DNA of 64,000 nucleotides from Candidatus Sumerlaeota bacterium (GTDB taxonomy: Bacteria; Sumerlaeota; Sumerlaeia; UBA8349), in NCBI GenBank assembly GCA_016931035.1, contig JAFGFN010000026.1, forward strand, positions 21,235 through 85,234, read 5' to 3'. Positions 49,184 to 64,000 of this stretch are shown here, one piece after another; the first letter of the stretch is position 1, and each line of letters begins with the position of its first letter. The notes beneath the pieces are model-generated. The model made no database searches and was not told the DNA's origin. It worked only from the letters and a program-made list of their open reading frames with translations. The translations under genes and the position numbers were made by a program.

Positions 49184-49193
49184 AGGCGTCCAA

Positions 49194-51047
49194 ATGAACG
49201 ATTCGGCCATCCGCCTCAAAGAGCTCGGGAAGATGTACAAACTCTTCCGCCATCCGGCGGACAGGGTGTTCGACGCGTTCGGTCTCCGCCGCCGTCCGTT
49301 CGGACCCAAACTCGTCTTCCAGGAGTTCTGGGCGCTGCGCGGCATCGACCTGCGCGTGACCAAGGGGGAGAGAATCGGCATCATCGGCCAGAACGGCGCG
49401 GGCAAAAGCACCCTGCTCAAGATCGTCACCGGCGTCGCTGCGCCGACCGAAGGGAGCGTCGAGGTCTCGGGACAGATTCAGGCCTTGCTCGAACTCGGGA
49501 CCGGTTTCCACCCGGAATTCACGGGACGCGAGAACATCCGGGCGTCGTTGTCGCTCAACGAATTCTCCTCGTCCGAGATCCGCGAGATGGAGGAGGATAT
49601 CGTCGACTTCGCGGAACTCGGCGATTTCATCGACCACCCTCTCAAGACCTATTCGGCGGGGATGGCGGCCCGATTGGCTTTCTCGACCGCCTCGGCCATT
49701 CGGCCCGAAATCCTCATCATCGACGAGGTCCTGGGCGCGGGCGACGCCTACTTCGCGGGCAAATGCGTCGAACGGATGAAGCAACTCACCCACGAATCGG
49801 GCGCGACGGTCCTCTTCGTCAGCCACGACCTGAACAGCGTCCAGGCCCTGTGCGAGCGCGTCCTCTGGATTCATCGCGGCCAGGTGCATCGCGACGGCGC
49901 GCCGCTCGATACGATCCAGGACTACATGGCGATGGTGCGGCGCGACGAGGAAACGCGGCTCCGCGCGCGCGACCTGAGAGTCCTGAAGAAACAGGCCCTC
50001 TTCCTCGAACGGGACGAGGACGTTTACGAAAAGACCTTGTTCCACTTTGTTTGTCCCGGATCGCCTCCCCCGCCGCCGGGACAGCGCATCTACGGCCTGA
50101 CCCTCTCGGTCGACGAGCAGGAGGCCGCCCGAATCGCGGTCGGGAGCCCGATGGACAATTCGGCCGATCACATGAATTACCTCATGGACACTCCCGGCTA
50201 CATGGACTGGGGACCCGCCGCCAAGGATCGCAACAGTCGGCCCTATCGCGAGTACGGCGACTACAAGGGGCGCTACGGCCACGCCCCCTTCGAGTTCGCC
50301 GTGCCGCGCACTCTGTTGCGCGAGGGCGAGACGCAACGCCTTCAACTCGACATCGAAGCCTCCGTCACTCATGAGGGCATCGCCGTCGAGGCGTACAACG
50401 GCGAGGCCTATGTCCCGATCGGCCCCGTCGCTACGGGCGAAGGCGTGGCGACGCGCCTCGAGTTTTCGAGCGCCCTTCTCCGACCCGGAAAGCAAGCGCT
50501 CGGCGCCGCCGCGCCGTCCGGAGAAACCGCTCTTCTGTCCGCCGCCGAACGTCCGGCCGAGCACGCGCCTCAACAACCCGTCCGCCACGAATACGGCGCG
50601 GGAGGGGCGAAGATTCTCCAGGTGCGAATGCTCAACGCCCAGGGCGAGGACACGCGCGTCTTTCATCCCGACGAACCGATGCGGGTCGAGATCGAATTCC
50701 AAGCCGAGGCCGAGCTGGCCGATCCCGTCTTCGTGTTCTGCGCCTATCTGCCCGACGGCCGGTGCGCCACCCAGTGGATCGTCGATTCGCGGACAATGGG
50801 CTCGCCCCGCGTGCCGCCGGGCAAGGGGCGCGCGACGTTTCGGATCGACCGGCTTGTCTTGGGCAAGTCCGCCTACGTCGCCAGCGCGGCGATCTTCAAG
50901 TTCCTGCGTCCCGACGGGCGGGAACCCGAAAGCTATCACGTCCTCGACCGATGCATCCATTTCCAAGTGGTACAAGGCGTAGAACACGTTTACGAGAAAG
51001 GGTTGTGCGTGCAACCCTTCGAGGCGGAGATCGATCTTGGACGCTGA
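49194..51047 (+). CDS. wzt: Polysaccharide ABC exporter ATP-binding protein with a C-terminal carbohydrate-binding extension
   Basis: Nucleotide-binding domain (GQNGAGKST, LSGG-like, DEVLGAGD) in residues 1-250. About 180-aa unique linker. C-terminal 150-aa Wzt_C-like beta-sandwich (KILQVRMLNAQGE...). Confidence 0.85.
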   Translation: MNDSAIRLKELGKMYKLFRHPADRVFDAFGLRRRPFGPKLVFQEFWALRGIDLRVTKGERIGIIGQNGAGKSTLLKIVTGVAAPTEGSVEVSGQIQALLELGTGFHPEFTGRENIRASLSLNEFSSSEIREMEEDIVDFAELGDFIDHPLKTYSAGMAARLAFSTASAIRPEILIIDEVLGAGDAYFAGKCVERMKQLTHESGATVLFVSHDLNSVQALCERVLWIHRGQVHRDGAPLDTIQDYMAMVRRDEETRLRARDLRVLKKQALFLERDEDVYEKTLFHFVCPGSPPPPPGQRIYGLTLSVDEQEAARIAVGSPMDNSADHMNYLMDTPGYMDWGPAAKDRNSRPYREYGDYKGRYGHAPFEFAVPRTLLREGETQRLQLDIEASVTHEGIAVEAYNGEAYVPIGPVATGEGVATRLEFSSALLRPGKQALGAAAPSGETALLSAAERPAEHAPQQPVRHEYGAGGAKILQVRMLNAQGEDTRVFHPDEPMRVEIEFQAEAELADPVFVFCAYLPDGRCATQWIVDSRTMGSPRVPPGKGRATFRIDRLVLGKSAYVASAAIFKFLRPDGREPESYHVLDRCIHFQVVQGVEHVYEKGLCVQPFEAEIDLGR

Positions 51048-54000
51048 CACCCAATACTTCGATCAGCCCGAAATCTGGGGACAGGCGCCGGAACCGTACC
51101 AGCGCCAGGTCCTGGCGGACGTTCTCAGTCTGTTGCCCGACGACGTCGAGAGCGTCCTGGACGCCGGCTGCGGCGACGGCTACATCGCGAACGCCCTGCC
51201 CGAACGCCTTCGCGTCGTCGGACTCGACGTGAGCGAAACGGCCCTCCAACACGTCCGCCGGGAAACGCGGGTCGGGTCGATCGCGGACCTTCCGTTCCCC
51301 GACGGATCGTTCGATCTCGCGATGGCCAACGACGTGGTCGAACATCTGTCGAAAGAGGATTACCGGCGGGCCCTGGCCGAACTGCGGCGCGTCTCTCGGA
51401 AGTACATCCTTCTCACGGTTCCCCTCAACGAACAACTCGAAGCGAACGAAGCCCGGTGCGCCGATTGCGGGGCGATCTACCACGTGAACCATCATCGGCG
51501 ATCTTTCTCCGAACGGTCCCTCGATCGTCTGTTCGGCGCCAGGTTCAAAGTCGTCGAAACCCGGCTGTCGGGAGACGTGACCGGAAGACCGCGCGACCCG
51601 ACCGCCGCGCTTCGTCGGAACCTGGGTTTCTATCACACATGGGAAAAGGCTATGTGCCCCGAGTGCGGGTCGAAACGCCAAATCCAGCCACCCACTTCTT
51701 CCACCCTGCGCCGGACGCTCGACGCTCTGCGCACGCGACGTTATGCGGAGACTCTCGTGCAACGCGGCCCGTGGAACGATCGTTCGGAAATCGTCGCGCT
51801 GTTCTCGCGTCGCCCGGGGCGGGTCCCTCTCGAAGACCTCTCTCCCGAAACGTTCTCCGTCCCCGCGCTCCGTGTGAATCTCGCCAATGCTCTCCAACGC
51901 GCCGAACCTGGGTTCACGCCGGGCGCGATCCGGCCTCGCTTTCTAACCCGGGGACCGTGGGAAGCGACCCCCAACGGTCTCCAAGCCCGGACGGGCGACG
52001 AACCGTCGCTCGTCCTCATCCGCTTTCCCGTCGAGCCCCGAGAAGGCGATCGACTCATCGTCGAAAGCGAGGGACGCGGTCGGTTGATCGTCTCCTCCCT
52101 CGATCCTCTCCTCGGGCGCGCGTTCGCTCTTCAGGACAAGCGCTACACGCAGGAGGACGCCCGGTTTCTGGAGATTCCCGTTTGCGAGACCTGGTGGCCC
52201 GACCAGGCGGGTTGGGGACTGGAGATTGTCGCCCAAGACGCTCTCGTGCTTCATTCCGTCGAGCTCCGGCCCGCCTCGGACGCCGCTCGGCGAACACTCA
52301 ACGCCGTCCGTCTCGAACCGGGACACCACATCGTGCGACGAACGATCGACGGCGTGGTGCGTTCGTGGGGACTCATGACGGAACACGCAGGATGGCGCCC
52401 GCTGCCGGATCTCGAAGCGTTCTTCTCGAAATCTCGCCCCAAACCCGAATCCCACGACGCCGATTGGGCTGAGTTCGCCGAGACGATCCGGGAGGCGGAC
52501 GACCGACGCCGCCGCGAGATCGATCTCCTCCGACGCGGCTCCGAGTTGACCGAGACGAAGCGCGCGAGGGCCGAAGAAGCGTATTCTCAAGCGCAAGAAC
52601 GGGCCTCGGCGGTGGAGACGGCGCGCGACGAGATGCAGGCGCTTCGAACCCAAGTCGAGACGCTCCGCGCCGCGCTGACTCGCACCGAGGAGGCGCGAGA
52701 CCGGGCCGAGAAGAGCTATATCGCCGCCTGCGAAGAACATCGGGCCTTGAGCGCCGAAACGGAATCGCTGCGCAAGACTCTGGCTCAAACCGAGGAGGGA
52801 TGGAGCCGGGCCGAGAAAACCTACATCGCCGCCTGCGAAGAACACCAGGCGCTTTGCGCCGAGACCCAGTCGTTGCGCGACGGTCTCGCGCGGACGGAAG
52901 AGGCGCGGAATCGAGCGGAGAAGAGCTATATCGCCGCGTGCGAAGAACATCAGGCGATGCGTCGCGGGACGGAGTCTTTGCGCAACGCCCTCACCGAGGC
53001 CGAGAACGCGCTCCGGCGCGCGCAGGAGGACCACGAGACGGACCTGAAGGAGAAAGAGCGTCTCCGCGACGAAGCGCGAGAACTCCGGACGGCCCTGTCT
53101 CAGGCCCAGGAGACCCGCCGGCGCGCCGAAGAATCGTGCGCGGCACTGCGCGACGAGAAGAACGCGCTCCACGACCAGCTCGCGAACGTGCGCGACGCGC
53201 TCGTTCAGGTGGAACAGGCGCGCGACCGCGCCGAGAACGCTCGCGTCGCCCTGTCCGAAGAACGGCTGGCGCTTCGAGTCGACATGGACGCCCTGAGACG
53301 TTCTCTCGCTCAGACCGAGAAAGAACGTCTCAGGATCGAAAGCGCGTCGGCCGCGCTGGAACGTCGAGTGATGAAACTCGAGCAGGCGCTGACCGATGCG
53401 GAACAGGAAATCGCGACCTCGAAACAGGAAGTCGCCTCTCTGCACGATGAGACCGTCCGCGCCGAGGTAGAGATCGACAAGACGCGCAGGCAGCGCGACA
53501 AGGCGGAGAACGCCTGTGTCGTCCTGCGAAAATCCCACGAAGACCTCGAGAAGCGCCTCGCGGCCCTAACCGAAGAATGTCGCTCGATGCGAGGCGTGCG
53601 GGGCGGGACGCGCGAGATTCTCTACGCCGTCAAGAAATGGATCGTCGGGCACCCTCCCGATTCGCCAGACGAGACGTATCCCGCGCGCTGGAAGTCGTTG
53701 CCCGCCGCCCTCGCCGACGGCCGCTCGCCCCGGGTCCTCGTTCTGTCCCACATGTTCCCGCATCCCGATCAACCCGCGCTCGGCTCCTTCATCCTCGAGC
53801 AGGTCCGGGCGCTCCGTCGCGACGCGGGAGTCGACGCCCGCGTCCTTTCGGGCCGACCTTACTGGATGAACCTCTCGCGCCATCCCCGAACGCTGTGGCT
53901 CCGAAACCTCGACTATTCGCGCAAGGCGCTCCCCAACGTCCGCTGGCGTGAACTCGACGGCGTCCCGGTCATGTACGTCCCCTACCGAGTCGTCGCCCGT

Positions 54001-54960
54001 CCGTGGACGCACGGCTGGTCGTATCGCAACGCCATGATGCGCGTGCTCGACCGGGTGCGAGCGGAATTCCGTTTCGACCTGGTCCACGCCCACACCGCCT
54101 ATCTCGACGGGACCGCCGGTCTGGCCATCGCTCGGCGCTTCGGAGTTCCGTTCCTTATCACCGAGCACACCGGCCCGTTCTCTCATTTACTTCGCGGTCC
54201 CATCATGACCCGCCAAACGAAACGCGCGCTCAACGGCGCCGACCGGACGATCGCCGTGTCGAACGACCTGAAACGAAACATGGGCGAAGTCATGAGTCCG
54301 GAGAAGGGCGAAAAGATCGTCGTCCTGCCCAACGGCGTCGACACGGAACTCTTCCGTCTGCCCGACGAACACCGGCCCGATCCGCGAGCGCCGCGCATCT
54401 TCTTCGTCGGCGGACTCGGACCCGTCAAGAACCTGCGTCTTCTCCTTAGGGCGTTCCAGATTATCGCGGGAGAGACTCCCGATGCGACACTGAACCTGAT
54501 CGGGGGCGAGGAAAAGGCCGGCAAGAAGAAGGTTCTCGACGATCTCGCCGGGGAACTCGGCCTGGTCAACCAAGTGCGATTCCTCGGACCCAAGACGCGC
54601 GAGGAAGTGGCGGAGCTCCTTCGCGAGGAGGCGGATCTCCTAGTCCTGTCCAGTCGGACGGAGACTTTCGGTTGCGTTCTTGTCGAGGCGATGGCGTGCG
54701 GCAAACCGGTCGTCGCCACGCGGTGCGGAGGACCCGAAGACATCGTGGCCGACAACCAAGTCGGACGGTTGTGCGAGAACGACAACGTCGAGGACCTGGC
54801 GCGGGCGCTTCGCGAGACGATCGAGAACCTTCCGCGATTCTCGCCGCAAGTCATCCGCCAATTCGCGGTCGAACGCTACGGATACGACGCCCTCACCGAG
54901 AACCTGCGACGGCTCTATGCGGAGCTCGCCGGGGCTGGAAACGGGCTACGCCGGACATGA
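51037..54960 (+). CDS. Tri-domain protein: SAM-dependent methyltransferase, extended coiled coil, glycosyltransferase family 4
   Basis: TTG start overlaps the wzt stop. MT motif I VLDAGCGDGY with Zn-ribbon-like CADC...CPEC. Residues about 480-850 form a heptad-periodic, 35-aa repeat coiled coil. Residues about 900-1307 form a GT4 domain ending in an EX7E region (ETFGCVLVEAMACGKPVVAT). Confidence 0.8.
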   Translation: MDADTQYFDQPEIWGQAPEPYQRQVLADVLSLLPDDVESVLDAGCGDGYIANALPERLRVVGLDVSETALQHVRRETRVGSIADLPFPDGSFDLAMANDVVEHLSKEDYRRALAELRRVSRKYILLTVPLNEQLEANEARCADCGAIYHVNHHRRSFSERSLDRLFGARFKVVETRLSGDVTGRPRDPTAALRRNLGFYHTWEKAMCPECGSKRQIQPPTSSTLRRTLDALRTRRYAETLVQRGPWNDRSEIVALFSRRPGRVPLEDLSPETFSVPALRVNLANALQRAEPGFTPGAIRPRFLTRGPWEATPNGLQARTGDEPSLVLIRFPVEPREGDRLIVESEGRGRLIVSSLDPLLGRAFALQDKRYTQEDARFLEIPVCETWWPDQAGWGLEIVAQDALVLHSVELRPASDAARRTLNAVRLEPGHHIVRRTIDGVVRSWGLMTEHAGWRPLPDLEAFFSKSRPKPESHDADWAEFAETIREADDRRRREIDLLRRGSELTETKRARAEEAYSQAQERASAVETARDEMQALRTQVETLRAALTRTEEARDRAEKSYIAACEEHRALSAETESLRKTLAQTEEGWSRAEKTYIAACEEHQALCAETQSLRDGLARTEEARNRAEKSYIAACEEHQAMRRGTESLRNALTEAENALRRAQEDHETDLKEKERLRDEARELRTALSQAQETRRRAEESCAALRDEKNALHDQLANVRDALVQVEQARDRAENARVALSEERLALRVDMDALRRSLAQTEKERLRIESASAALERRVMKLEQALTDAEQEIATSKQEVASLHDETVRAEVEIDKTRRQRDKAENACVVLRKSHEDLEKRLAALTEECRSMRGVRGGTREILYAVKKWIVGHPPDSPDETYPARWKSLPAALADGRSPRVLVLSHMFPHPDQPALGSFILEQVRALRRDAGVDARVLSGRPYWMNLSRHPRTLWLRNLDYSRKALPNVRWRELDGVPVMYVPYRVVARPWTHGWSYRNAMMRVLDRVRAEFRFDLVHAHTAYLDGTAGLAIARRFGVPFLITEHTGPFSHLLRGPIMTRQTKRALNGADRTIAVSNDLKRNMGEVMSPEKGEKIVVLPNGVDTELFRLPDEHRPDPRAPRIFFVGGLGPVKNLRLLLRAFQIIAGETPDATLNLIGGEEKAGKKKVLDDLAGELGLVNQVRFLGPKTREEVAELLREEADLLVLSSRTETFGCVLVEAMACGKPVVATRCGGPEDIVADNQVGRLCENDNVEDLARALRETIENLPRFSPQVIRQFAVERYGYDALTENLRRLYAELAGAGNGLRRT
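52684..52998 (+). repeat. 3 x 105-bp near-identical in-frame tandem repeats encoding 35-aa coiled-coil units (RAEKSYIAACEEH...)
   Basis: Unit starts at 52684, 52789 and 52894. At least four more diverged 35-aa units follow. Confidence 0.8.
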
Positions 54961-54981: not shown

Positions 54982-57534
54982 TCATTCCGAGAGGGGCGTC
55001 GTTCGCCACTCGATGTCGCCGCCTTCGAGCGACGGCGGCGACGGACCGGGATACAGCCCCAGTCCCGTGATACAAACGCAACGCTGCTCGACGCGGCGCG
55101 TGGCCAGCGTCACGGTAGTCGATTCCTCGCTCGCCCACGGCGCGAGCGGAACCCAGTCCCGGACGGCCTTCGCCGACCGGTAGGCAATCTCGAATCGCCG
55201 TCTCCCGATCTCCGCTTCCAAAACGTTCTCCTCGGGGCCGTTCGAGTAGACTTCCAGGAAGAGTCCGCCGCTCGACGATCCGAACAATTCGTTCAGGTTC
55301 CGAGAGGAGAGCCGCACCTTCGCACCGCGAGTCAAGAGCATCGTCCGATTGTTCTCCACGAAATCCGAGGAAGAAACGCCGGTCGAGGGCGCCTCCGAAG
55401 CCGGACGCCATCCCTCCGGATCGAACGCTTCGGTCGCCGGAACGAATCGCGCGACCGCGTTCGGGCTCAACCCGTAGAGCCGTATGACGTAGTCGAAGCT
55501 CGATGTCCGTAGCGTGTCGCGCCTCAGACTCCGCCTCTGCGATACGCCGTCGGCCATTGGACACATGAATGCCGTTGTCTGGAAAAGCGGCGTCATGTGC
55601 CGTCGCAAAACGGCCCCCCACGGGAGGCTCAAAGACAACGTCTCCGACGAATAGGCGGATTCGCAAGCCAGGATTCCGAAACGACGATCGGGCGCAAGCT
55701 CGGAATACAGCGGCTCGACCCGGCCCTGTGGAAGCGGCGCGGGATTGAAGTAACGCAGCGGTATCGCAAGAATCGGGGACACACCGCTTGCCGAACACGC
55801 GCGGCTCGACTCCCCCGCCGCGCGGTAGCGATTCCAGTAGAGGGCGCGATGACGAACGCCCCAGTTTCCCGCCAGGAGTCCAACGCAAACCGCCGCCGCG
55901 ATCCACTTCGCCGCGCTCCTCACGCGGCCGGGTCGGGTTCGCAGCAGTTCCGACGGCGCATACAACAAAGCGACGAAGTAAAGCGTGTAGAGCGCGACGT
56001 AGTTGCGGCGCTCGAAATGGTGTCCGTATTGAAGAATGAGGAGATACGTCAGTGGAAACCACAGAACGGCCAGGATATCCCATCGGCCCGCCTTTCCCCG
56101 GAACGCCCGCGCGAGAAAAAGCAACCACCCGCTCACGACGCACAACGCGCCGATCCCAAAGAGAATCGGTCCCTCGGCGTGCGCCAGCATCCGGAGCGCT
56201 TCCGCGATCTCTCGTTTCTGGTTCGCGGCGGGGTTCGCGTGGACGAGGAGCATCGAGAAGTATCCCGGGCCAAAGAAAGCGTAGAGAAGGTTCGCCGCGG
56301 TGAACACGGCGCCGATCGCGAAACACAGCCATCCGAGCCGCAAAGCCTGACGCCCATGCCGCCGCGACAGAAACAGCAACCCGATGGAAAGGGCGATCGA
56401 GAGAACCGAGAGCGTCACGACGAGATTCCATCGCGCCGCTTCGCTCAGGTTCGTGACGAGCGCGTACCCTTGCGACACATCGGCCTTGTACCAGAAGAGC
56501 GATGGAGCGTTCGGCAGGACGGCGAAGACGCCGAGTCCCACGAGAATCGCTAGTGTCGACAGGCTGCGCCGCAAGACGACGAGCGCGGCAAGACCCTCGA
56601 GAATCGCCAGGACGATCAGCAAGAACATCGTCGTCGGGTAAGCCAGCTGCGACAACGCGAGAAGCGCGCCTCCCGCCGCCGCCCATCCGGCCCCGCCGGA
56701 ACGGCCCGTCGATTCGGACGCCCACAGATACGACGCCAAACCGCCCACGAGCAGGCACGCTTGCACAGTCACCGGAAACCCGGACGGCAGATAACAGGAG
56801 TGCATGAGAGAGAACGTCGGAAGCGCCGCCGCGACGGCGCCCGCGGCCGCCCCGAAACGTCGGGCGAAAAGAACGCCGAAGATCGCCGCCGTGAGCAAAC
56901 CGCAAATCAGATTCGCGCTCACCTGGATCGTCTCGCGCATCGGCAGACCGAGCAGGACCGCAATCGGAGGCAGCGGCACGTGAAACAGAGGCTTGGTGTG
57001 GACGGCCGCCAGGGTCCTGAAGTACGCCCTCGCGGCCTCCGAGCGACGCATCCCATCGAGTCTCTCGACGGAACTGCCGAACGTCGCCGCGGCATTCCGC
57101 CGGAGATCGTCGGCGAGAAGGGGCGAGAGGCTCCCGCGCAACGCAAGACTCAGATACGCCGTCGCCAGCGTGTTCTGCTGCATGTAGAGATTCTCGTCGT
57201 ACATGAAGAAGCCGCTCTTCACGTACTTCCCATGACACGCGGCGAACACGACCAGAAGAACGACGATCCCGATCGCGAGCGACCGAAGCGACGGACCCGC
57301 GCCGCCGTCCCGTCCGTCGTCGTTCGACGCCGCGTCCAAGTGAAACGCCGTCGCCTGTTCTTCCAGGACGGAAAGATCCAAGAACCGGGATTGCGCGACG
57401 TAGCGCGGGCCCGTCTTGGTGCGGACGAACAGCCGCACCAGAATCGCCTTGAGCGCACCCGAGAATCCCGGGACCCATCCGAACGCGATGAGAGCCGATC
57501 GAAAAGCAACGAAACGCGTCGGAGTCATGCGCAT
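54982..57534 (-). CDS. Large polytopic membrane protein, GT-C-like (YDE motif in first loop), with C-terminal soluble domain
   Basis: Start ATG at 57534 (MRMTPTRF) overlaps the upstream gene by 10 nt. About 14 TM helices. The upstream Arg-rich extension of the ORF and the alternative-frame ORF 54893..57478 are rejected. Confidence 0.5.
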   Translation of the reverse strand: MRMTPTRFVAFRSALIAFGWVPGFSGALKAILVRLFVRTKTGPRYVAQSRFLDLSVLEEQATAFHLDAASNDDGRDGGAGPSLRSLAIGIVVLLVVFAACHGKYVKSGFFMYDENLYMQQNTLATAYLSLALRGSLSPLLADDLRRNAAATFGSSVERLDGMRRSEAARAYFRTLAAVHTKPLFHVPLPPIAVLLGLPMRETIQVSANLICGLLTAAIFGVLFARRFGAAAGAVAAALPTFSLMHSCYLPSGFPVTVQACLLVGGLASYLWASESTGRSGGAGWAAAGGALLALSQLAYPTTMFLLIVLAILEGLAALVVLRRSLSTLAILVGLGVFAVLPNAPSLFWYKADVSQGYALVTNLSEAARWNLVVTLSVLSIALSIGLLFLSRRHGRQALRLGWLCFAIGAVFTAANLLYAFFGPGYFSMLLVHANPAANQKREIAEALRMLAHAEGPILFGIGALCVVSGWLLFLARAFRGKAGRWDILAVLWFPLTYLLILQYGHHFERRNYVALYTLYFVALLYAPSELLRTRPGRVRSAAKWIAAAVCVGLLAGNWGVRHRALYWNRYRAAGESSRACSASGVSPILAIPLRYFNPAPLPQGRVEPLYSELAPDRRFGILACESAYSSETLSLSLPWGAVLRRHMTPLFQTTAFMCPMADGVSQRRSLRRDTLRTSSFDYVIRLYGLSPNAVARFVPATEAFDPEGWRPASEAPSTGVSSSDFVENNRTMLLTRGAKVRLSSRNLNELFGSSSGGLFLEVYSNGPEENVLEAEIGRRRFEIAYRSAKAVRDWVPLAPWASEESTTVTLATRRVEQRCVCITGLGLYPGPSPPSLEGGDIEWRTTPLSE

Positions 57535-58475
57535 GGCTCGACGCCCTCCCGCACGAGATGGGTCAGCAGGTAGTCCGTCGCCATCGGAATCGAATAACGG
57601 TCGTCCATCCAAAGCGGATTGACGATGATATTCTCCTCCAAACCGCGCTCGATCCGTTCGAGCAGGGGGCTCCGCAATCTCGCGAAGGCCGAGGGATAGA
57701 GAAACTGCGTGCGACGACTCGTGTCCGCGTATTCGAACAGTCCGTTCGGCGCCACGCGTTCGCGCAGCCACTCGTCGCATCGCCGCGCCGCTTCCCACGC
57801 GGCTTCCGATCCGGAAGCGGCGGCGTATTGGGTCACAAGGCTCATCGTGATCGAGGCGTAGCCGACGTCCGGGCCGTCGTATTCGAGAAAGCAACCGGTC
57901 GGAAGTTGGTGCGCGATCAGAAGACCGATCTGTTCTTCCGCCGCTCGAGCGAACGTCGCGTCGTCCGCGATGCGCGAGGTGTTCCAGAGCGCCGCGCACG
58001 AGGCGGCGAGCTGGTTCGCCACGTCGGCCCGTGGGTGTCGCGCGAGCCAGCGGGCCGTCGGGCGCAAGTCGATGCCGAAGTCGTCTCCCGCCAGAAGCAT
58101 CGCCGCCGTGATCGCTTGGGCCGACATCGCCGTGGCGCAGAAGCTCCGTTCCCACGGATAGACTTCGTCCACCGAGCCGTCGGAATGGCGCTGGGAACTC
58201 CAGAACCGCGCGGCCGCCCGAATCTGCGGCGCAAAGAGATCGCGCGCACTCGGCAGGCACTGTCCGAGACGCGCAAGGTAGAGCGCACACTCCTGATAGC
58301 GAGCGTTGCAGGTGTCGTGGATGCCGTAGTGCCACCAGGAGCGGTCGAAACAACCGTGCGTCGCCGACTCCGGGTCCATGTCGAGGAAACCAAGGAAACG
58401 CTCACACAGCGCGCGGCCGAAACGGAGGAACTCGCTCGACCGATGCGGAGGCGGTGGGGTGAGATCGATCGTCAT
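57525..58475 (-). CDS. Hypothetical protein (possibly alpha/alpha-toroid fold)
   Basis: Start MTIDLTPP at 58475, ATGA-overlapping the upstream gene. Trp/aromatic-rich. Confidence 0.4.
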   Translation of the reverse strand: MTIDLTPPPPHRSSEFLRFGRALCERFLGFLDMDPESATHGCFDRSWWHYGIHDTCNARYQECALYLARLGQCLPSARDLFAPQIRAAARFWSSQRHSDGSVDEVYPWERSFCATAMSAQAITAAMLLAGDDFGIDLRPTARWLARHPRADVANQLAASCAALWNTSRIADDATFARAAEEQIGLLIAHQLPTGCFLEYDGPDVGYASITMSLVTQYAAASGSEAAWEAARRCDEWLRERVAPNGLFEYADTSRRTQFLYPSAFARLRSPLLERIERGLEENIIVNPLWMDDRYSIPMATDYLLTHLVREGVEPCA

Positions 58476-59320
58476 GAGGCTTTTTGCCCACTCTTGCGCG
58501 CCGCCAGGGTCAGTGTCAGGTTGAGATCCACCGAGGGAATCCATCCGAACGGGAAGAACCGCCGCCGCTCGACCTGGAAGGAGCGGCGCAGCTCTCGAAC
58601 CACGCCTCGCGCCGAGTTGCAGTGCTCGATCGCGATCGCCTGCGCGTAGTCCAGACCGTATCGCTTGGAAAGCGTCCGTTGCGAAGTGAATCGTCGCCCC
58701 AGATTCCAGGCCCATCCTCCTTCGCAGGGAAGTCCGACAAGAAACAAACCGTCATCCGCGAGCACGCGCCGGACTTCCGCGAGTACGTCGCCGAGGAAGA
58801 AGAGATGCTCCAGGGAATAGATCGAGATAATCGTGCCGAATGCGCCGTCGCGAAAGGGAAGGCGGCACGCGTCGGCCTGCATCACTCGGGCTCTCGGAAA
58901 TCGCCGCCTCGCCGATCGTAAGGAATCGAGATTCACGTCCACGCCCACGACGCTCTCGCGTTCAGAGAAGTAAGAGAAGTGAGCGCCCCCTCCGCACCCC
59001 AGGTCGAGAGTCCACGCTTCGGGAGAAGGGGGATACTGCGCCACTCGCTTATGGGCCGAGTGGTGAATCCAGCGGAAAACACCGTTGCCCAATTCGAAGT
59101 ACTCGTCGAGCGACTCGGCGGCCACGCTCTTCCACTTCTGGCAGTGCGGGTTGTCCGCGCCGCGAGTATCGACTCGGGGTTCCGACGGCATCATGACGAG
59201 CACGCCGTCCGTCGATTCGAATTCGCGCCCGCAGGTTTCGCAGCGAGTGTTTTCTCCTTCCATGCGCGCCGCCGTCCGGCAATCGGGACACGCGAGCAGA
59301 CTCTCGAACGGCGCTTTCAT
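58472..59320 (-). CDS. Class I SAM-dependent methyltransferase with an N-terminal Zn-ribbon
   Basis: CPDC...CETC zinc ribbon, then LDLGCGGG (motif I) and VDVNLD. Confidence 0.75.
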   Translation of the reverse strand: MKAPFESLLACPDCRTAARMEGENTRCETCGREFESTDGVLVMMPSEPRVDTRGADNPHCQKWKSVAAESLDEYFELGNGVFRWIHHSAHKRVAQYPPSPEAWTLDLGCGGGAHFSYFSERESVVGVDVNLDSLRSARRRFPRARVMQADACRLPFRDGAFGTIISIYSLEHLFFLGDVLAEVRRVLADDGLFLVGLPCEGGWAWNLGRRFTSQRTLSKRYGLDYAQAIAIEHCNSARGVVRELRRSFQVERRRFFPFGWIPSVDLNLTLTLAARKSGQKAS

Positions 59321-60258
59321 CGCGTCGAGTCCTCCTCCGGGCGAGAAGCGGGAGGGCGTCTTCGCGCCAGCTGGCCCAACTCGAGCCGCACCTGGGCGAT
59401 CTGCTCGGCCAAGAGACCGAAGAAGAAGACGAACACGCCCGACAAGATGAGCGCGAGAGACGAGCCAAACACACCTCCCCTAAGAACGATCTGAATCACG
59501 CCCCAGACGCTCCCGACGACGAGCAGGAAAAGCCCCGTGGGCGTGAAGATGCGTTGCGGATTGAAGAGCATTGTCAAACGCAGCAGAATGTGAAGGAAGC
59601 GGAGTCCGTCGCGCAGCGGACGAATCCCGCTGCGCCCCGTGCGGCGGCGTCCGATCGTCTTCAGAGACACGTATCGCACTTCGCGTCCCAGCTTGAGAAA
59701 CGCCATCGTCACCGTCGTCGGATAGGAGTAGTGCCGGGGGAAAAGATGAACGACTTCCAGGAGCGGCTCGCGCCGGACCGCGCGGAATCCCGAAGTGAGG
59801 TCCGCGATCTTCTCCTGCGATAGGAATTCCGCGAATCGGATCAGTCCGCGATTGCCGAACGAACGCAGACGCGAGACGTTCGCTCCGGGCGCGCGAGCCC
59901 CGACCACAAGGTCGCACTCGCCGCAGTGCTCGAGGAGGGCGGGAATCTCTTCGGCCGGGTGCTGCCCGTCGGCGTCGAGCATCACGATCCATTCGCCCCG
60001 TGCCGCCTCGCACCCGGTGCGGACGGCGGCCCCGTTGCCTCGGTTCTTCGAATGCCGCACCACGCGCGCGCCCGCTTCGCGCGCCGCGTCCGCCGTGCCG
60101 TCGGTCGAACCGTCGTCCACGACGACAATCTCGTTCGCTATGTTCAGCGCCGCGATGCGGCGGACGACTTCGCCCACGCTTTCCGCCTCGTTGAAGGCGG
60201 GGATCACCACGCTCACGTCCGGCCGGGTCGCACTCGTCGGGTCGAGACTCGTCATCAT
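59317..60258 (-). CDS. Polyprenyl-phosphate glycosyltransferase (GT2, GtrB/ArnC/DPM1-like)
   Basis: VSVVIPAFNE, DDGSTDGT and DADGQH motifs plus two C-terminal TM helices. Confidence 0.8.
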   Translation of the reverse strand: MMTSLDPTSATRPDVSVVIPAFNEAESVGEVVRRIAALNIANEIVVVDDGSTDGTADAAREAGARVVRHSKNRGNGAAVRTGCEAARGEWIVMLDADGQHPAEEIPALLEHCGECDLVVGARAPGANVSRLRSFGNRGLIRFAEFLSQEKIADLTSGFRAVRREPLLEVVHLFPRHYSYPTTVTMAFLKLGREVRYVSLKTIGRRRTGRSGIRPLRDGLRFLHILLRLTMLFNPQRIFTPTGLFLLVVGSVWGVIQIVLRGGVFGSSLALILSGVFVFFFGLLAEQIAQVRLELGQLARRRPPASRPEEDSTR

Positions 60259-61700
60259 TCTCCTCGCGCGGAAAAGTCGAGCACCTGGACGCCCGCGAGC
60301 GTGAAGCGCTTCACGTCGTCGAAGGTGCGCACACGCCGCAGTGTCCTCCAGAAATACCGTGGGCGCAAGTAGAAGCGACGATACGCCCGGCGAACCGCCT
60401 TCTCCAAATACTCCGAAGAGACGTGCGTATAGTGCTCGTTGTAGAGCGCACCGACGTGGAGATTGGCGAGATCCGTCGCGGACCCGTCGCCGATCTCGGG
60501 ATGCCGCGCGGCGACCTCATCGAACAGGGGCGTCCCCGGATACGGTGTGCACAGGCCGAACGTCACCGTCGTCGGATCGATTTCGAGGACGAAGCGGACC
60601 GTCGTCTCGATCGTCTCCTCGGTTTCGCCCGGCATCCCCAACATCACGTGGGCGTGAGTCTCCACGCCCGCCTGCCGCGCCCAACCGAACACCTCGCGCG
60701 TCTGCTCGATGCGCGTCCCCTTGCGGCTGCGGTCGAGAATCTCCTGCACCCCGGATTCCACTCCGAACTTGACCATGTGGCATCCCGATCGCTTCATCGT
60801 CTCGAGCGTCTCGAGATCGAGCGTGTTGACCCGCGCGTTGCAGACCCAGGTCAGGTCGAGATGCGACTCTATCAACTTCCGGCAGAACTCTTGCGTGCGA
60901 GAACGGCTGAAAGTGAACGTCTCGTCGCGGAAGAAGATCTCGCGATACCCCTTCGCGCTCAGCTGCGCGAGCTCGGCGATCACGTTGTCCACGGACCGCG
61001 CCCGAAGACGCGGACCGTAGAAGAACGGCGCCGTGCAGAAGCTGCACAGTCCCGGACAGCCGCGCGAAGTCGAGAGCGTCATATACGGCATCCGCCGCAC
61101 CACGGGGTTGAAGTAGTGCACGCCGCGCGGAAGCATGTCCACGTCCAGAAAGGGAAGATCGTCGAGATTCTCGATGAACGGGTAGTCGGGGTTCAGAATC
61201 GTCCGGCCGTCTTCGCGATATCCGATCCCGGGCACGCCGCGCCAGTCCTCGCCTCGATCGAGCGCCAGCGCCACGTCGCGCACGACGTATTCGGGCTCGC
61301 GCCGAACGACGACGTCTACCCCCTCCTTGGCGAGCGTCGCCTCGGGCAGGAAGGTCGGATGCGAACCGAAAAGGAAGGTCTGCAGGCTCGCGTTGACTCC
61401 CTTCATGCTCCTCAGGGTCTCGGCGTCCTCGTTCACGCTCATCGTGGACGTGGACATGACGACCACGTCGAATTCCGAAGCGCGAGCCACTACGCGAGTC
61501 AGAGGAACCCGTTCGCCGAGCGCGTCCAGGAACTCGACGTCCAGTCCCGCCCGCTTGAGCACCGTCGCGACCCCGAGCAACGCATAGGGCGGGACGCTGG
61601 CCCCACCGATGCGCTTCCCCTTGCACCAACAGCCGTAGAGCACGTCGCGCACAACGTTCTTCGTGAACGCACTGGAAGGATTGAGAACGAGGAAACGCAT
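60255..61700 (-). CDS. B12-binding domain radical SAM protein (class B)
   Basis: N-terminal cobalamin-binding Rossmann fold followed by CPGLCSFC (CxxxCxxC). Start MRFLVLN at 61700. The upstream Arg-rich part of the ORF is rejected. Confidence 0.85.
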   Translation of the reverse strand: MRFLVLNPSSAFTKNVVRDVLYGCWCKGKRIGGASVPPYALLGVATVLKRAGLDVEFLDALGERVPLTRVVARASEFDVVVMSTSTMSVNEDAETLRSMKGVNASLQTFLFGSHPTFLPEATLAKEGVDVVVRREPEYVVRDVALALDRGEDWRGVPGIGYREDGRTILNPDYPFIENLDDLPFLDVDMLPRGVHYFNPVVRRMPYMTLSTSRGCPGLCSFCTAPFFYGPRLRARSVDNVIAELAQLSAKGYREIFFRDETFTFSRSRTQEFCRKLIESHLDLTWVCNARVNTLDLETLETMKRSGCHMVKFGVESGVQEILDRSRKGTRIEQTREVFGWARQAGVETHAHVMLGMPGETEETIETTVRFVLEIDPTTVTFGLCTPYPGTPLFDEVAARHPEIGDGSATDLANLHVGALYNEHYTHVSSEYLEKAVRRAYRRFYLRPRYFWRTLRRVRTFDDVKRFTLAGVQVLDFSARGE

Positions 61701-61717
61701 GACGGAGATCTGCCCTT

Positions 61718-63658
61718 CTAAGCCGCGACGGGCACGGCGCGCATCGCCTCGCGCCACATCATGAGAATAACGAGGCTCATCCTCTGTTTGCCATGCAGAA
61801 GATCGAGCCGTCCGGTCCCGTCGCGAAGACGACGCACGGCGTCCGGATCGAGCCATTCCTGCCCGCGCAAACGCTCGTCGCCGAGCCATTCCTCCTCGAG
61901 TCGCGCGAGCGCTTCGCCGTAGGCTTCTTCGAGCGGGACGTGGAACGCCTGTTTCCGTCCGCCGCCGGCGTAGCCCGGAATCCAGCGCTCGGCGCAGGTC
62001 CGCAAAATCCGCTTGTTCGTCCCGCGACGAATCTTCCACCCGATCGGAAGCGCCGTCGCGAGCTCGACCAGGCGCGGGTCGAGAAACGGCACCCGGCCTT
62101 CGAGCGACGCCCCCATCGTCATCTTGTCCATCTTGAGCAGAATGTTGTCGGGAAGCCAGAATCGGCACTCCTGCTCCAAGAGCGCGTCGAAAAGGCCTTG
62201 CGCGCCCCGCTCGCGCGAGCGCGCCAGGTCCGCCGCGAGATCGCCGGTCACGTCGCGGACGTCGTCGTGTCCGTCGCGCCACTCGGGACGAAGGAGCCCG
62301 TCGAGCGCCGCGTCGTCGAAAAGCGAAACGTGCGCCATGTACATCGCCTCGGGATGCCCCATCGCCGCGAGCATCGCCGCCAAACGCTCGCGACCCGACA
62401 CGCCGAGCGACGATGGATAGTCGAAGAACCGATCGAGCCAAGCGACCGGCGTACGACTCACCGCCCACCCCGCCGCGCGTCCGACGGCGCGAGCGAGCGG
62501 CCCGAGCCGCCGCGAGGCTCCGAACAGGCGCAACAGGTTCTTCTGATGGAGGTAGCCGCCGAGCAACTCGTCCGCCCCTTCGCCCGTCAGGACCACTTTG
62601 ACCTCGCGCGCCGCGGCCCGGGACAGAAGATAGAGTGGCAGAATGATCGCGTCGCCCAACGGCTCGTCCATCAGGCGCACGGCGTCGGGAAGGAGCCGCA
62701 TGTCGTCGGGACGCATCCGAATCGAGGTGTGCCGCGCGCCGATCCGCCGCGCCAGAGACTCCGCCGCCGCCGTTTCGTCGCGTGCCGTGCCGAAACCCAT
62801 CGAAAACGTTCGCACCGGTTCGTCCGTGTGGCGCGCCATCAGACTCACGATGCTTCCCGAGTCCACTCCCCCGCTCAGGAAGGCCCCCACGGGCACGTCG
62901 GCCATCATCTGCATCCGAACGGCGTCTTCGGCGAGAGAGGCGAACTCGTCAATCGCGTCTTCCTCGCGCTTCCACCGCTCTTCGCCCCGGAAACGCGTTT
63001 GCCAATAGGGCTTGGTACACACCGCGCCGTTCTCGATCGTCATCCGATGCCCCGGCGGAAAACGCCGTATGGAACGCCACATCGTATGAGGACCCGGAAC
63101 GTAGCGAAGCCGCAGATAGAGCCGCAGCGCCGCGGGATCCACGTCGCGCCGAACCCACGGCAGCGTCAGGAGCGACTTGACCTCCGAGGCGAATACGAAG
63201 CTCTCCGGCGTCTCGGCATAAAACAAGGGTTTGACGCCCATCGGGTCGCGCGCAAGAACCAGACGGCGGCGTGGGGCGTCCCACAACCCGAACGCGAAAA
63301 TGCCATTGAGGCGTCTCACCATCTCCTCGCCCCATTCGGCGTAGGCGTGGAGAAGCGTTTCCGTGTCGCACCGCGTGCGAAAGACCCGCCCGCGCGACTC
63401 CAGCTCGCGACGCAAGTCCATGAAGTTGTATATCTCGCCGTTGTAGACGACGACCAGGCCGCCGTCGGCGCTCGCCATCGGCTGCGCGCCGCCTTCGAGA
63501 TCGACGATGCTCAACCGCTGGTGCCCCAAACCGATCATGCCGTCCGGCGCGAGATAGACCCCTTCTCCGTCCGGACCCCGGTGCGCCATCTGCGCGCGCA
63601 TCGCGTCGAGGCGCTCGCGCGTCGCGCCCGGGCCGAGAATCCCACAAATGCCGCACAT
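61718..63658 (-). CDS. asnB: Asparagine synthetase B-type glutamine amidotransferase, second paralog
   Basis: MCGICGI nucleophile and SGGVDS PP-loop. Confidence 0.85.
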   Translation of the reverse strand: MCGICGILGPGATRERLDAMRAQMAHRGPDGEGVYLAPDGMIGLGHQRLSIVDLEGGAQPMASADGGLVVVYNGEIYNFMDLRRELESRGRVFRTRCDTETLLHAYAEWGEEMVRRLNGIFAFGLWDAPRRRLVLARDPMGVKPLFYAETPESFVFASEVKSLLTLPWVRRDVDPAALRLYLRLRYVPGPHTMWRSIRRFPPGHRMTIENGAVCTKPYWQTRFRGEERWKREEDAIDEFASLAEDAVRMQMMADVPVGAFLSGGVDSGSIVSLMARHTDEPVRTFSMGFGTARDETAAAESLARRIGARHTSIRMRPDDMRLLPDAVRLMDEPLGDAIILPLYLLSRAAAREVKVVLTGEGADELLGGYLHQKNLLRLFGASRRLGPLARAVGRAAGWAVSRTPVAWLDRFFDYPSSLGVSGRERLAAMLAAMGHPEAMYMAHVSLFDDAALDGLLRPEWRDGHDDVRDVTGDLAADLARSRERGAQGLFDALLEQECRFWLPDNILLKMDKMTMGASLEGRVPFLDPRLVELATALPIGWKIRRGTNKRILRTCAERWIPGYAGGGRKQAFHVPLEEAYGEALARLEEEWLGDERLRGQEWLDPDAVRRLRDGTGRLDLLHGKQRMSLVILMMWREAMRAVPVAA

Positions 63659-63682
63659 TGGCGTCCCGTTCTTCCCGCGTTC

Positions 63683-64000
63683 TCAGAAGTCGATGTAGTC
63701 CGGCAACAGCTCGTCCATCGGAAGCGGCAGTCGTTCGCGATACTGAACGTGCTTGGCGACCTGGAACCCCATCCAGATCGCGTCGTCCACGTTGGCATAG
63801 CAGAAGAGCCCCTGCCTGCCGAACGTCGTGACGTTCGACAGGCTCGACAGGTGATCGACGATGGCTCGGATCTTTTCCTGATAGCCGACCCGAAATCGCG
63901 GATACGCATGGCGCAGACGCCGCGTGTGATAACTCTCGACGCGCCGGCGCGCGAGAAGACCGTTCGCTTCGAGCGGCCCCATCACCCGTTCGAACAACGT
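63683..64000 (-). CDS. C-terminal part of a putative FAD/NAD(P)-dependent oxidoreductase (gene continues beyond the window)
   Basis: C-terminal ...TFGRQGLFCYANVDDAIWMGFQVAKH is amine-oxidase/UDP-galactopyranose-mutase-like. Partial. Confidence 0.35.
   Translation of the reverse strand, partial: TLFERVMGPLEANGLLARRRVESYHTRRLRHAYPRFRVGYQEKIRAIVDHLSSLSNVTTFGRQGLFCYANVDDAIWMGFQVAKHVQYRERLPLPMDELLPDYIDF

Follow-up and report, generated by a model that had tools for sequence, protein, structure and literature searches.

Three-component glycosylation systems of the Gtr and Arn type contribute in large measure to the diversity of surface glycans, to serotype conversion and to resistance against antimicrobial peptides. 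In the Arn pathway the lipid-linked sugar is tailored at the cytoplasmic face, by ArnD, before it is flipped. The mycobacterial PpgS/Rv3632/Rv3779 system, which decorates arabinogalactan with galactosamine, combines a glycosyltransferase family 2 (GT2) polyprenyl-phosphate-sugar synthase with a small membrane protein and a membrane glycosyltransferase of the GT-C type. In the three-component systems known to us the carrier-bound sugar is left unchanged or is altered only by simple steps. Here we describe an operon of seven genes (G1 to G7) in a 64,000-nucleotide stretch of DNA from a Candidatus Sumerlaeota bacterium (contig JAFGFN010000026.1), the whole of which is called the window in the following. 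The operon and hundreds of related loci point to a version of these systems with more elaborate tailoring before transfer by the GT-C enzyme. The window is of high GC content (approx. 64%), and the seven co-directional minus-strand genes extend from position 54982 to beyond 64000, G7 being truncated by the window end:

63683 to >64000, minus strand: G7, partial FAD/NAD(P)-type oxidoreductase, C-terminal 105 amino acids, running past the window end
61718-63658, minus strand: G6, predicted AsnB-type amidotransferase, 646 amino acids
60255-61700, minus strand: G5, radical S-adenosylmethionine (SAM) protein with B12-binding domain, HpnJ/AprD4-like subfamily, 481 amino acids
59317-60258, minus strand: G4, predicted GT2 polyprenyl-phosphate glycosyltransferase (DPMS/ArnC/GtrB type), 313 amino acids
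58472-59320, minus strand: G3, class I SAM methyltransferase with N-terminal four-Cys (Trm112-like) zinc ribbon, 282 amino acids
57525-58475, minus strand: G2, cytoplasmic (alpha/alpha)6-barrel protein of an undescribed family, 316 amino acids
54982-57534, minus strand: G1, membrane protein, 850 amino acids plus stop codon

From homology and gene context we consider it probable, at somewhat better than an even chance, that the operon is a self-contained module by which a tailored sugar, brought in on polyprenyl phosphate as carrier, is added to a surface glycan as a decoration. A wider reading, which we hold only tentatively, concerns the recurring cassette of radical SAM enzyme, GT2, G2 and a small domain that is here fused to the N-terminus of G1. 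This cassette may represent an undescribed, widespread branch in Bacteria and Archaea, in which the radical SAM enzyme and a membrane-tethered G2 would rebuild the polyprenyl-phosphate-linked monosaccharide, e.g. to a deoxy, rearranged or branched sugar, before GT-C transfer. If the sugar is indeed rebuilt by these two proteins while lipid-linked, this would be the first radical SAM chemistry on a sugar bound to a carrier lipid, and the pair of G2 and small domain would act as a fourth component, one that physically links the tailoring in the cytoplasm with the transferase facing the periplasm; a new type of radical SAM reaction and a new sugar structure would be the practical pay-offs. The locus also provides a functional context for three unannotated families, namely the 316-residue family of G2, present at at least 588 loci among GTDB species representatives in many bacterial phyla and archaea, the small protein of 55-77 amino acids, and the large, tight and unnamed radical SAM subfamily of G5 with more than 3,000 homologues at E<1e-30.

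The Arn pathway (ArnC, ArnD, ArnE/F and ArnT; aminoarabinose of lipid A) resembles the operon in that a GT2 loads undecaprenyl phosphate, G4 aligning with ArnC structures over residues 13-282, and in that a PMT_2-type GT-C enzyme transfers the sugar in the periplasm. It differs in having a deformylase where the operon has a radical SAM enzyme, an (alpha/alpha)6 barrel with its anchor domain, a methyltransferase and an AsnB protein. Furthermore a flippase of the ArnE/F type is missing from the operon, orthology of G1 to ArnT was undetectable, and the 78 bits of G4 with the ArnC model fall short of the cut-off of 529. In O-antigen glucosylation by GtrA, GtrB and GtrC a GT2 with two C-terminal transmembrane helices likewise makes the polyprenyl-phosphate sugar (G4 matches the GtrB structure 5ekp), and a polytopic enzyme uses it on the periplasmic side. 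Unlike the Gtr system, the operon contains no GtrA-like flippase and has four or five extra enzymes, and G1 carries a fused cytoplasmic domain at its N-terminus and a domain of 290 amino acids at its C-terminus. The PpgS model is the second-best NCBIfam match of G4 (97 bits), far under the cut-off of 370, and the PpgS system has neither a radical SAM enzyme nor an (alpha/alpha)6 protein.

The pentofuranose three-component systems of ABC-transporter-dependent O antigens consist of PPPRS, a MATE flippase, a GT136 GT-C enzyme and an auxiliary epimerase (Kelly et al. 2024, PMC11127046). As in our proposal, decoration takes place in the periplasm after polymerisation, next to a Wzm/Wzt-type pathway, the C-terminal domain of the GT-C enzyme binds carbohydrate, and the lipid-linked donor is diversified by auxiliary enzymes, which is a precedent for such enzymes acting on lipid-linked donors in three-component systems (PMC11127046). 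The donor there is made from phosphoribosyl pyrophosphate by a UbiA-type synthase and not by a GT2 (PMC11127046); radical SAM, AsnB and (alpha/alpha)6 components are absent from those systems, and G1 is not assigned to GT136. For HpnI/HpnK/HpnJ and the archaeal calditol synthase, a radical SAM enzyme with a B12 domain likewise acts downstream of a GT2 on a lipid-anchored sugar (PMC13459092). It is a proposal, not a demonstrated fact, that HpnJ turns a lipid-linked glucosamine into a cyclitol by contraction, and for calditol synthase the contraction of a lipid-linked hexose is likewise proposed (PMC13459092). The present operon differs from these in the score of G5 (293 bits against the HpnJ cut-off of 577.6), in the absence of hopanoid genes among the nearby ORFs (open reading frames) that were scanned, in its lipid, which would be polyprenyl phosphate, and in the GT-C enzyme that follows. 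The apramycin enzymes AprD4, a radical SAM diol dehydratase, and AprG, an (alpha/alpha)6 transaldolase, have soluble aminoglycosides as substrates and are regarded here as a lead, not as a sign of membership.

The overall logic is already known from the Gtr, Arn, PpgS and GT136 systems. What is apparently new is a radical SAM enzyme embedded in a system of the three-component type, a cytoplasmic adaptor domain fused to a GT-C enzyme, an orphan GT-C family of two members and the pair of G2 and small domain as a conserved extra component. No paper describing the combination of radical SAM, undecaprenyl phosphate and GT-C was found in the incomplete literature at hand, and an earlier description elsewhere is possible.

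Operon layout and recurrence of the cassette

A sequence-only reading of this DNA had proposed a seven-gene minus-strand operon, and both the ORF listing and the direct reading of the junctions confirmed it. The 4-nt ATGA overlaps are present exactly as described at 58472-58475, 59317-59320 and 60255-60258, as are the 10-nt overlap of G1 and G2 at 57525-57534 and the gap of 24 nt between the G7 stop codon (63683-63685) and the asnB (G6) start at 63658. At the junction of asnB and the radical SAM gene, which the earlier reading had not given, the asnB stop codon (61718-61720) and the radical SAM ATG at 61700 leave a gap of 17 nt, without overlap. Upstream of most starts Shine-Dalgarno-like purine-rich runs were seen (GGAGGAGG, GAGGAG, GGGAGGG, GAAGGG). 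Within the operon block a consensus scan detected no sigma-70-like promoter and terminator-like hairpins were rarer than in shuffled sequence, which fits a single transcription unit, as do the overlapping genes and the synteny kept in related DNA; Rfam and tRNA scans of the operon region yielded nothing informative. The gene annotations of the earlier reading were upheld by Pfam and NCBIfam searches and by sequence motifs, for G1 via profiles only.

The operon is real and tightly packed. It is not a chance arrangement, because all six complete genes recur in unchanged order on the sister metagenomic contig L087, with protein identities of 39-72% (AsnB 62, radical SAM 72, GT2 65, G3 56, G2 63 and G1 39%). 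There the row reads AsnB, radical SAM, GT2, Trm112-methyltransferase, LPG_synthase_TM, a methyltransferase on the opposite strand, G2 and G1. At this locus of the sole G1 relative (L001/L087) the homologue of G1 is preceded and overlapped by a gene for a protein of 327 amino acids that shares 63% identity with G2.

Recurrence of the cassette was observed by comparative genomics, and the following counts were taken over 82 related loci. A GT2 of the G4 type scoring at least 140 bits was found in 24 loci and a weaker GT2 in 32 more, a G5-type radical SAM protein of at least 400 bits in 20, an AsnB of at least 350 bits in 18, and a G3 orthologue above 230 bits in only 3. Orthologues of both G4 and G5 (52-56% identity) adjoin G2 in L004 and L006. 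The cassette is also carried by cultured organisms, namely Fundidesulfovibrio agrisoli SG106 (L031, with the row AsnB, radical SAM, GT2, G2, small ORF and membrane protein), F. magnetotacticus (L004), Solidesulfovibrio alcoholivorans and Thalassospira lucentensis Mv1 (L033). Three proteins picked arbitrarily from the G5 subfamily, all encoded on long contigs, were inspected, and each adjoined a G2 homologue (E 1e-103 to 1e-139) and a GT2 of the G4 type. The triad of radical SAM, GT2 and G2 stays constant while the surrounding nucleoside diphosphate (NDP)-sugar genes vary, and L091 displays a complete row of radical SAM, G2, GT2, LPG_synthase_TM, methyltransferase and PMT_2.

Large polytopic ORFs flanking G2 were scanned as well. 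Seven of the 21 pass Pfam GT-C thresholds (PMT_2, PMT, STT3, YfhO) and 4 more match PMT or PMT_2 with scores under the threshold. LPG_synthase_TM proteins account for three of the 21; one of these, from Dictyoglomota, is fused to PMT_2 and also counts among the seven. Two of the 21 are of the Wzx type. LPG_synthase_TM proteins occur in L087, L019, L049, L085 and L091. The Gtr-like three-component logic suggested by the sequence-only reading gains comparative support from this adjacency of the cassette to PMT_2, YfhO and STT3 GT-C proteins and to flippase candidates; within the operon itself the synthase (G4) and the GT-C enzyme (G1) are present and a flippase gene is absent. In Dictyoglomota (L049 2489-4780, also L051, L052, L061 and L071) a protein of approx. 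760 amino acids, LPG_synthase_TM (MprF-flippase-like) joined to PMT_2, follows a fusion of G2 and the small domain, and it is a candidate flippase-transferase fusion.

The membrane protein G1 and its small N-terminal domain

G1 is identical to NCBI JW916_02205 and was divided into three parts:

57370-57534, minus strand: residues 1-55, fused 'small-protein' domain, aligning with free-standing proteins of 55-77 amino acids
55855-57297, minus strand: residues approx. 80-560, predicted polytopic GT-C (PMT_2-like) core, from hydropathy, HMMER and hhalign
54982-55854, minus strand: residues 561-850 plus stop codon, predicted C-terminal soluble domain, partly beta-rich, from hydropathy and a low-confidence model

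A word-indexed search of 5.8 billion proteins returned as relatives of G1 only the protein itself and P0002 (37% identical). When 1.84 billion cluster representatives were searched exhaustively by HMMER with the profile of the two sequences, the full-length family stayed at these two members. The other matches fell into two groups, of which one comprised approx. 20 free-standing proteins of 55-77 amino acids and one of 158 amino acids matching residues 1-55. The long non-self matches, to residues approx. 129-350, were only three (E 1.4e-5, 3.6e-5 and 5.3e-4, corrected for the library); two of these pass the Pfam PMT/PMT_2 gathering thresholds and the third, P0126, lies just under (PMT_2 25.1 vs 26.1 bits). 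In hhalign the G1 pair aligned with these three proteins at 98.2% (E 3.7e-14) over 242 columns starting at the first transmembrane segment (TM1), and with an alignment of 10 PMT_2-type sequences, most of them Pfam-validated, at 97.1% (E 6.1e-11) over the PMT_2 core. We concluded from these profile comparisons that G1 would be a very divergent PMT_2-like GT-C enzyme, and the earlier description of the membrane protein as GT-C-like is thereby supported.

Hydropathy places TM1 at approx. 85-100, followed by a loop of approx. 90 residues and approx. 11 further hydrophobic segments up to residue 556, an arrangement like that of GT-C enzymes. The loop contains Y112-D113-E114 (window 57193-57201), invariant in both family members, and in hhalign this triplet aligns with the loop-1 'QDEATY' of the PMT-type relatives, so that the acidic YDE motif noticed in the sequence-only reading corresponds to the loop-1 DE motif of those enzymes. 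The link of G1 to a polyprenyl-phosphate donor is one of genomic association only, the DPMS/ArnC-type GT2 being encoded two genes upstream. The N-terminus of G1 would face the cytoplasm, because in other genomes the counterpart of its N-terminal domain forms one polypeptide with G2, a cytoplasmic protein.

The C-terminal approx. 290 residues contain no hydrophobic segments beyond approx. 556 in the hydropathy plot and are kept in the sole homologue P0002, as seen e.g. in the shared RVEQRC; their beta-rich content was read from a low-confidence AlphaFold2 model only. This part may be a periplasmic acceptor-binding domain, a role suggested because GT-C enzymes with C-terminal carbohydrate-binding modules exist (PMC11127046). 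A second GT-C protein is encoded in the window at 19401-21116 (minus strand, 571 amino acids, Pfam PMT_2 45 bits), and a relation of it to G1 was undetectable in single-sequence comparison.

The sequence-only reading had recognised the GT-C core and had missed the domain at the N-terminus of G1. The consensus of this small domain is MxMTPxKL..R..F..TFGR.P.FS.LLK...YVASSRFF. It consists of two short helices with a conserved G-x-x-P between them, then a basic stretch and the conserved YVASSRFF, and its hydrophobic segment lies at G1 residues 15-33. It probably serves as a monotopic membrane anchor of helix-break-helix shape that sits on the cytoplasmic side. An ORF of 60-72 amino acids homologous to G1 residues 1-55 follows the G2 homologue in Fundidesulfovibrio, Vampirovibrio and a Latescibacterota genome. 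Of the 82 loci, 24 encode the small sequence as an ORF of its own immediately behind G2, and 27 contain it within the C-terminus of G2 fusion proteins of approx. 540 amino acids; in the other 31, among them many short contigs or divergent loci, it was undetected. In L009, from a Planctomycetales metagenome-assembled genome, it forms the N-terminal part of another membrane protein, which scores above the Pfam threshold for PMT_2, and fusions of the domain to GT-C proteins occur in two lineages. Because the small domain fuses to either G2 or a GT-C protein, which is a Rosetta-stone pattern, we propose that G2, the small domain and the GT-C protein act together. The pattern implies a complex of the cytoplasmic tailoring enzyme with the GT-C enzyme. 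In L042 (10874-11614, Desulfobacteraceae) the small domain shares an open frame with a YdjM-family inner-membrane protein (PF04307, 70 bits), which could be a third fusion type or a mis-joined stop-to-stop ORF.

The proteins G2 to G7

The enzyme classes of G3, G4, G5 and G6, like that of G1, and the fold of G2 were assigned by homology. No part of the system is more widespread or more diagnostic than G2, which the earlier reading had listed as an uncharacterised protein without recognising this importance. G2 matched no Pfam (E<=10) or NCBIfam family, its homologues form 106 clusters that are all labelled 'hypothetical', and neither a signal peptide nor a transmembrane segment was predicted. 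An AlphaFold2 model from 77 sequences, with a predicted local distance difference test score (pLDDT) of 95.8, is an (alpha/alpha)6 barrel. Weak Pfam matches within the family belong to the same superfold (Pec_lyase in 20 of the 77 sequences, SQHop_cyclase_C in 7, and also Ulvan_lyase_N), and the G2 profile gave only insignificant matches to PDB sequences (AprG E 0.3, squalene-hopene cyclase E 0.6). The likeness to AprG is at fold level only, with 12-16% identity. The modelled fold suggests a carbohydrate- or isoprenoid-binding enzyme and does not fix the reaction, epimerase, isomerase, lyase and hydrolase chemistry being indistinguishable for this predicted enzyme. A SPASM-type radical SAM gene without counterpart in the window overlaps the start of the G2 homologue in L004 (8920-10017), L005 (9001-10017) and L008.

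G5 matches the Pfam B12-binding (PF02310, 53.8 bits) and Radical_SAM (PF04055, 91.3 bits) domains above their gathering scores and has the CxxxCxxC motif CPGLCSFC at residues 215-222 (C215-x3-C219-x2-C222). The best NCBIfam model is HpnJ (TIGR03471), aligned over the full length with 293 bits, under its cut-off; BchE (185) and AprD4 (150) come next, and methylases such as PhpK score lower. Its best PDB match is AprD4 (6fd2, E 4e-34). AprD4 is a sugar diol dehydratase that is reported not to need cobalamin. The top 120 homologues of G5 have approx. 482 amino acids and are 51-72% identical, and none of the 120 is functionally named. The sequence-only reading had seen a B12 radical SAM enzyme and considered C-methylation; the former stands by the Pfam domains and the motif, and the latter is disfavoured because the nearest families, HpnJ, BchE and AprD4, do not methylate. 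With low confidence we favour hydrogen abstraction on the sugar ring, and C-methylase activity was down-weighted. AprD4, the closest structure to G5, and AprG, the top though non-significant profile match of G2, both belong to apramycin octose biosynthesis; this coincidence hints at C-C or deoxy chemistry on sugars and may be chance.

G4 matches Pfam Glycos_transf_2 with 110.8 bits and carries DAD at residues 95-97. Two C-terminal hydrophobic helices are predicted at 241-259 and 266-284, as required of a GT2 of the kind proposed before, and the closest solved relatives, DPMS (5mlz, E 9e-20), ArnC (9bhc/9hwj/8vxh, E 6e-18) and GtrB (5ekp), agree with the earlier GtrB/ArnC-like assignment. The best NCBIfam models are AglJ (139 bits), PpgS, Dol-P-hexose transferase (84 bits) and ArnC. 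No sugar was named for G4, because its best equivalog, AglJ, falls below the cut-off. By its domain layout and closest characterised relatives G4 is predicted to be a polyprenyl-phosphate GT2 synthase of the DPMS/GtrB/ArnC type.

G3 is a SAM methyltransferase with an N-terminal zinc ribbon, as had been read from the sequence, with 69 bits to Pfam Methyltransf_11 and four Cys at 11, 14, 27 and 30; its orthologue in L087 (56% identical) has a weak Trm112p match. G6 matches Pfam Asn_synthase (283 bits) and GATase_7. It scores 463 bits with TIGR01536, above the cut-off of 267, and also 463 with the XrtA/PEP-CTERM exopolysaccharide (EPS) amidotransferase model, below the cut-off of 817. Its N-terminus MCGI would provide Cys2 as nucleophile, and with Cys nucleophile, GATase and synthetase domain all present G6 is predicted to be a glutamine amidotransferase of the AsnB type. 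For G7 the best NCBIfam models were of the PRK07208 type (E 1.5e-10), below cut-off because the protein is partial.

Proposed pathway, alternatives and the surrounding glycan locus

The level at which the sugar is tailored, the chemistry, the flippase and the acceptor are what we infer in the following scheme. By homology, G4, anchored by its C-terminal helices, would move the sugar of a nucleotide sugar onto polyprenyl phosphate at the cytoplasmic face of the membrane. There the sugar may be remodelled while it is lipid-linked. G5 would abstract a hydrogen from the sugar ring, deoxygenation or rearrangement being likelier than methylation, and G2 would be held at the membrane by the small helix-break-helix domain, here fused to the N-terminus of G1. 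G3, G6 and G7 would tailor the sugar further, G6 e.g. by converting a carboxylate to a carboxamide. The product would then be flipped, for which the MATE/MurJ-like gene at 30710-32197 is a candidate, and the sister operon has an LPG_synthase_TM protein. Finally G1, whose enzyme class has the support of homology, would transfer the sugar on the periplasmic side via loop-1 Asp113/Glu114 to an acceptor that may be the polymer exported by the adjacent Wzm/Wzt pathway, bound by the C-terminal domain of 290 amino acids. The Rosetta-stone fusion predicts that the cytoplasmic enzyme and the GT-C enzyme form a complex.

Several observations weigh against this scheme. The operon has no flippase gene and the window no LPG_synthase_TM homologue, some G2 loci are without a detected GT-C or GT2 within 10 kb (many contigs being short), and G4 reaches no NCBIfam equivalog cut-off (AglJ 139 vs 325). 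The GT-C assignment of G1 depends on profile comparisons with a family of two sequences; homology to GT-C enzymes, the lack of which would have spoken against the sequence-only reading, appeared in these profiles, and the curated models stayed silent. G1 itself has no direct Pfam (E<=10), NCBIfam or PDB sequence match, and the two-sequence profile found none in Pfam, NCBIfam or PDB either. Single-sequence hhalign of G1 with the window's own PMT_2 protein (19401-21116) was not significant, nor was the membrane part when the G1 profile was aligned with the single L031 membrane protein or the L009 protein, and only multi-sequence profiles succeeded. The AlphaFold2 model of G1, built from the two-sequence alignment, had a pLDDT of 35.5 and a predicted TM-score (pTM) of 0.27 and was unusable for a fold search. 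These gaps would be expected if G1 were no glycosyltransferase and instead a polymerase, ligase or transporter that shares only hydrophobic composition with PMT-type proteins. We regard this as very improbable, as all three long matches among 1.84 billion proteins are of the PMT type with E-values that take the full library size into account, profile-profile comparison gave more than 97% in two independent cases, the invariant acidic pair aligns with the catalytic DE motif, and the same small domain is found at the N-terminus of the Pfam-positive PMT_2 protein in L009. A transporter in particular is contradicted by the profile homology and the DE motif.

The main competing explanation, which we consider unlikely, is tailoring at the level of the nucleotide sugar: G5, G2, G3, G6 and G7 would build an NDP-sugar, and G4 would load the finished sugar for G1. 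The soluble enzymes could act before G4, since G5, G3, G6 and G7 have no membrane segments; the substrate of AprD4, whose solved structure comes nearest to G5, is a soluble aminoglycoside, and the related loci are rich in NDP-sugar enzymes (DegT, epimerases, NeuB). A soluble substrate hardly explains, however, why G2 is consistently tethered or fused to a hydrophobic small domain that is itself fused to GT-C proteins in two lineages. For HpnJ, which comes nearest to G5 among the named families, a lipid-linked sugar is the proposed substrate (PMC13459092), and the triad of radical SAM, GT2 and G2 persists where neighbouring NDP-sugar genes vary. The same resemblance to HpnJ, the best-scoring named family for G5 over its full length, could be taken to mean that the product is a membrane glycolipid head group of the HpnI/HpnK/HpnJ or calditol kind, with the GT2 glycosylating a lipid and the radical SAM enzyme contracting the sugar to a cyclitol, as is proposed for lipid-linked hexoses in HpnJ and calditol synthase (PMC13459092), and with G1 in a structural or transport role. 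This appears quite improbable to us. The score of 293 bits is about half of the HpnJ cut-off of 577.6, G4 resembles DPMS, ArnC and AglJ while HpnI is absent from its match list, GT-C proteins and flippase candidates recur beside the cassette, and a cyclitol phosphate would not serve a GT-C enzyme as glycosyl donor. Neither squalene-hopene cyclase (shc) nor any other hpn gene was found among the window ORFs that were scanned, which were a part of all ORFs, or among the called genes of related loci that were looked up. With G5 below cut-off and no hopanoid gene context, the hopanoid HpnIJK pathway was down-weighted. Hardly credible, in our view, is a cluster resembling those for ribosomally synthesised and post-translationally modified peptides (RiPPs), in which the ORF of 55-77 amino acids would be a precursor modified by the radical SAM enzymes, an AsnB-like cyclase, the methyltransferase and the glycosyltransferase. 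A short conserved ORF does lie beside radical SAM genes, among them the SPASM-type genes overlapping the G2 start in L004, L005 and L008, and AsnB homologues include lasso-peptide cyclases. Yet the cyclase model gives G6 237 bits, below its cut-off of 525, whereas G6 passes the asparagine synthase model. The small sequence is hydrophobic and conserved end to end, lacking the variable core of a precursor, and no protease, exporter or RiPP recognition element gene was seen. A RiPP cluster was rejected because of the fusions of the small domain to large enzymes, that is to GT-C proteins of 800 amino acids and to the G2 C-terminus in dozens of genomes, archaea included.

As for the acceptor in the preferred scheme of decoration by a lipid-linked sugar, the operon lies within a 30-kb glycan locus with Wzm and Wzt. 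Directly next to it are:

48383-54960, plus strand: Wzm (Pfam ABC2_membrane), Wzt with a Wzt_C carbohydrate-binding domain (ABC_tran and Wzt_C) and a protein of 1307 amino acids (Methyltransf_11 and Glycos_transf_1)

The gene for the 1307-residue protein (51037-54960) directly follows the Wzm and Wzt genes at 48383-51047, is convergent with the operon and ends at 54960, 21 nt from the G1 stop. The protein has an N-terminal SAM methyltransferase, a coiled coil of approx. 400 residues with a match to an SMC model and a C-terminal GT4, an architecture that resembles the chain terminators and molecular rulers of the WbdD/WbbB type in ABC-transporter-dependent O antigens. Wzm, Wzt and this gene would form an ABC-transporter-dependent glycan pathway, whose polymer is by position the most plausible acceptor of the decoration.

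The wider locus encodes an initiating phosphoglycosyltransferase, GT2 and GT4 proteins, a DegT aminotransferase, a UDP-GlcNAc 2-epimerase and a Wzy_C/TPR protein. A second AsnB-type amidotransferase (45102-47012, minus strand, 636 amino acids, approx. 34% identical to a G6 orthologue) adjoins a GT4, and the locus therefore has two amidotransferases. The MatE/MurJ-like polytopic protein at 30710-32197 (minus strand) is a possible flippase for the lipid-linked donor or for a repeat unit. Next to the DegT aminotransferase, at 36920-38548 (plus strand), a GFO/IDH/MocA oxidoreductase is fused to a hexapeptide acyltransferase; these three activities are the usual enzyme set for an N-acylated amino sugar, the oxidoreductase and the acyltransferase here being joined in one polypeptide.

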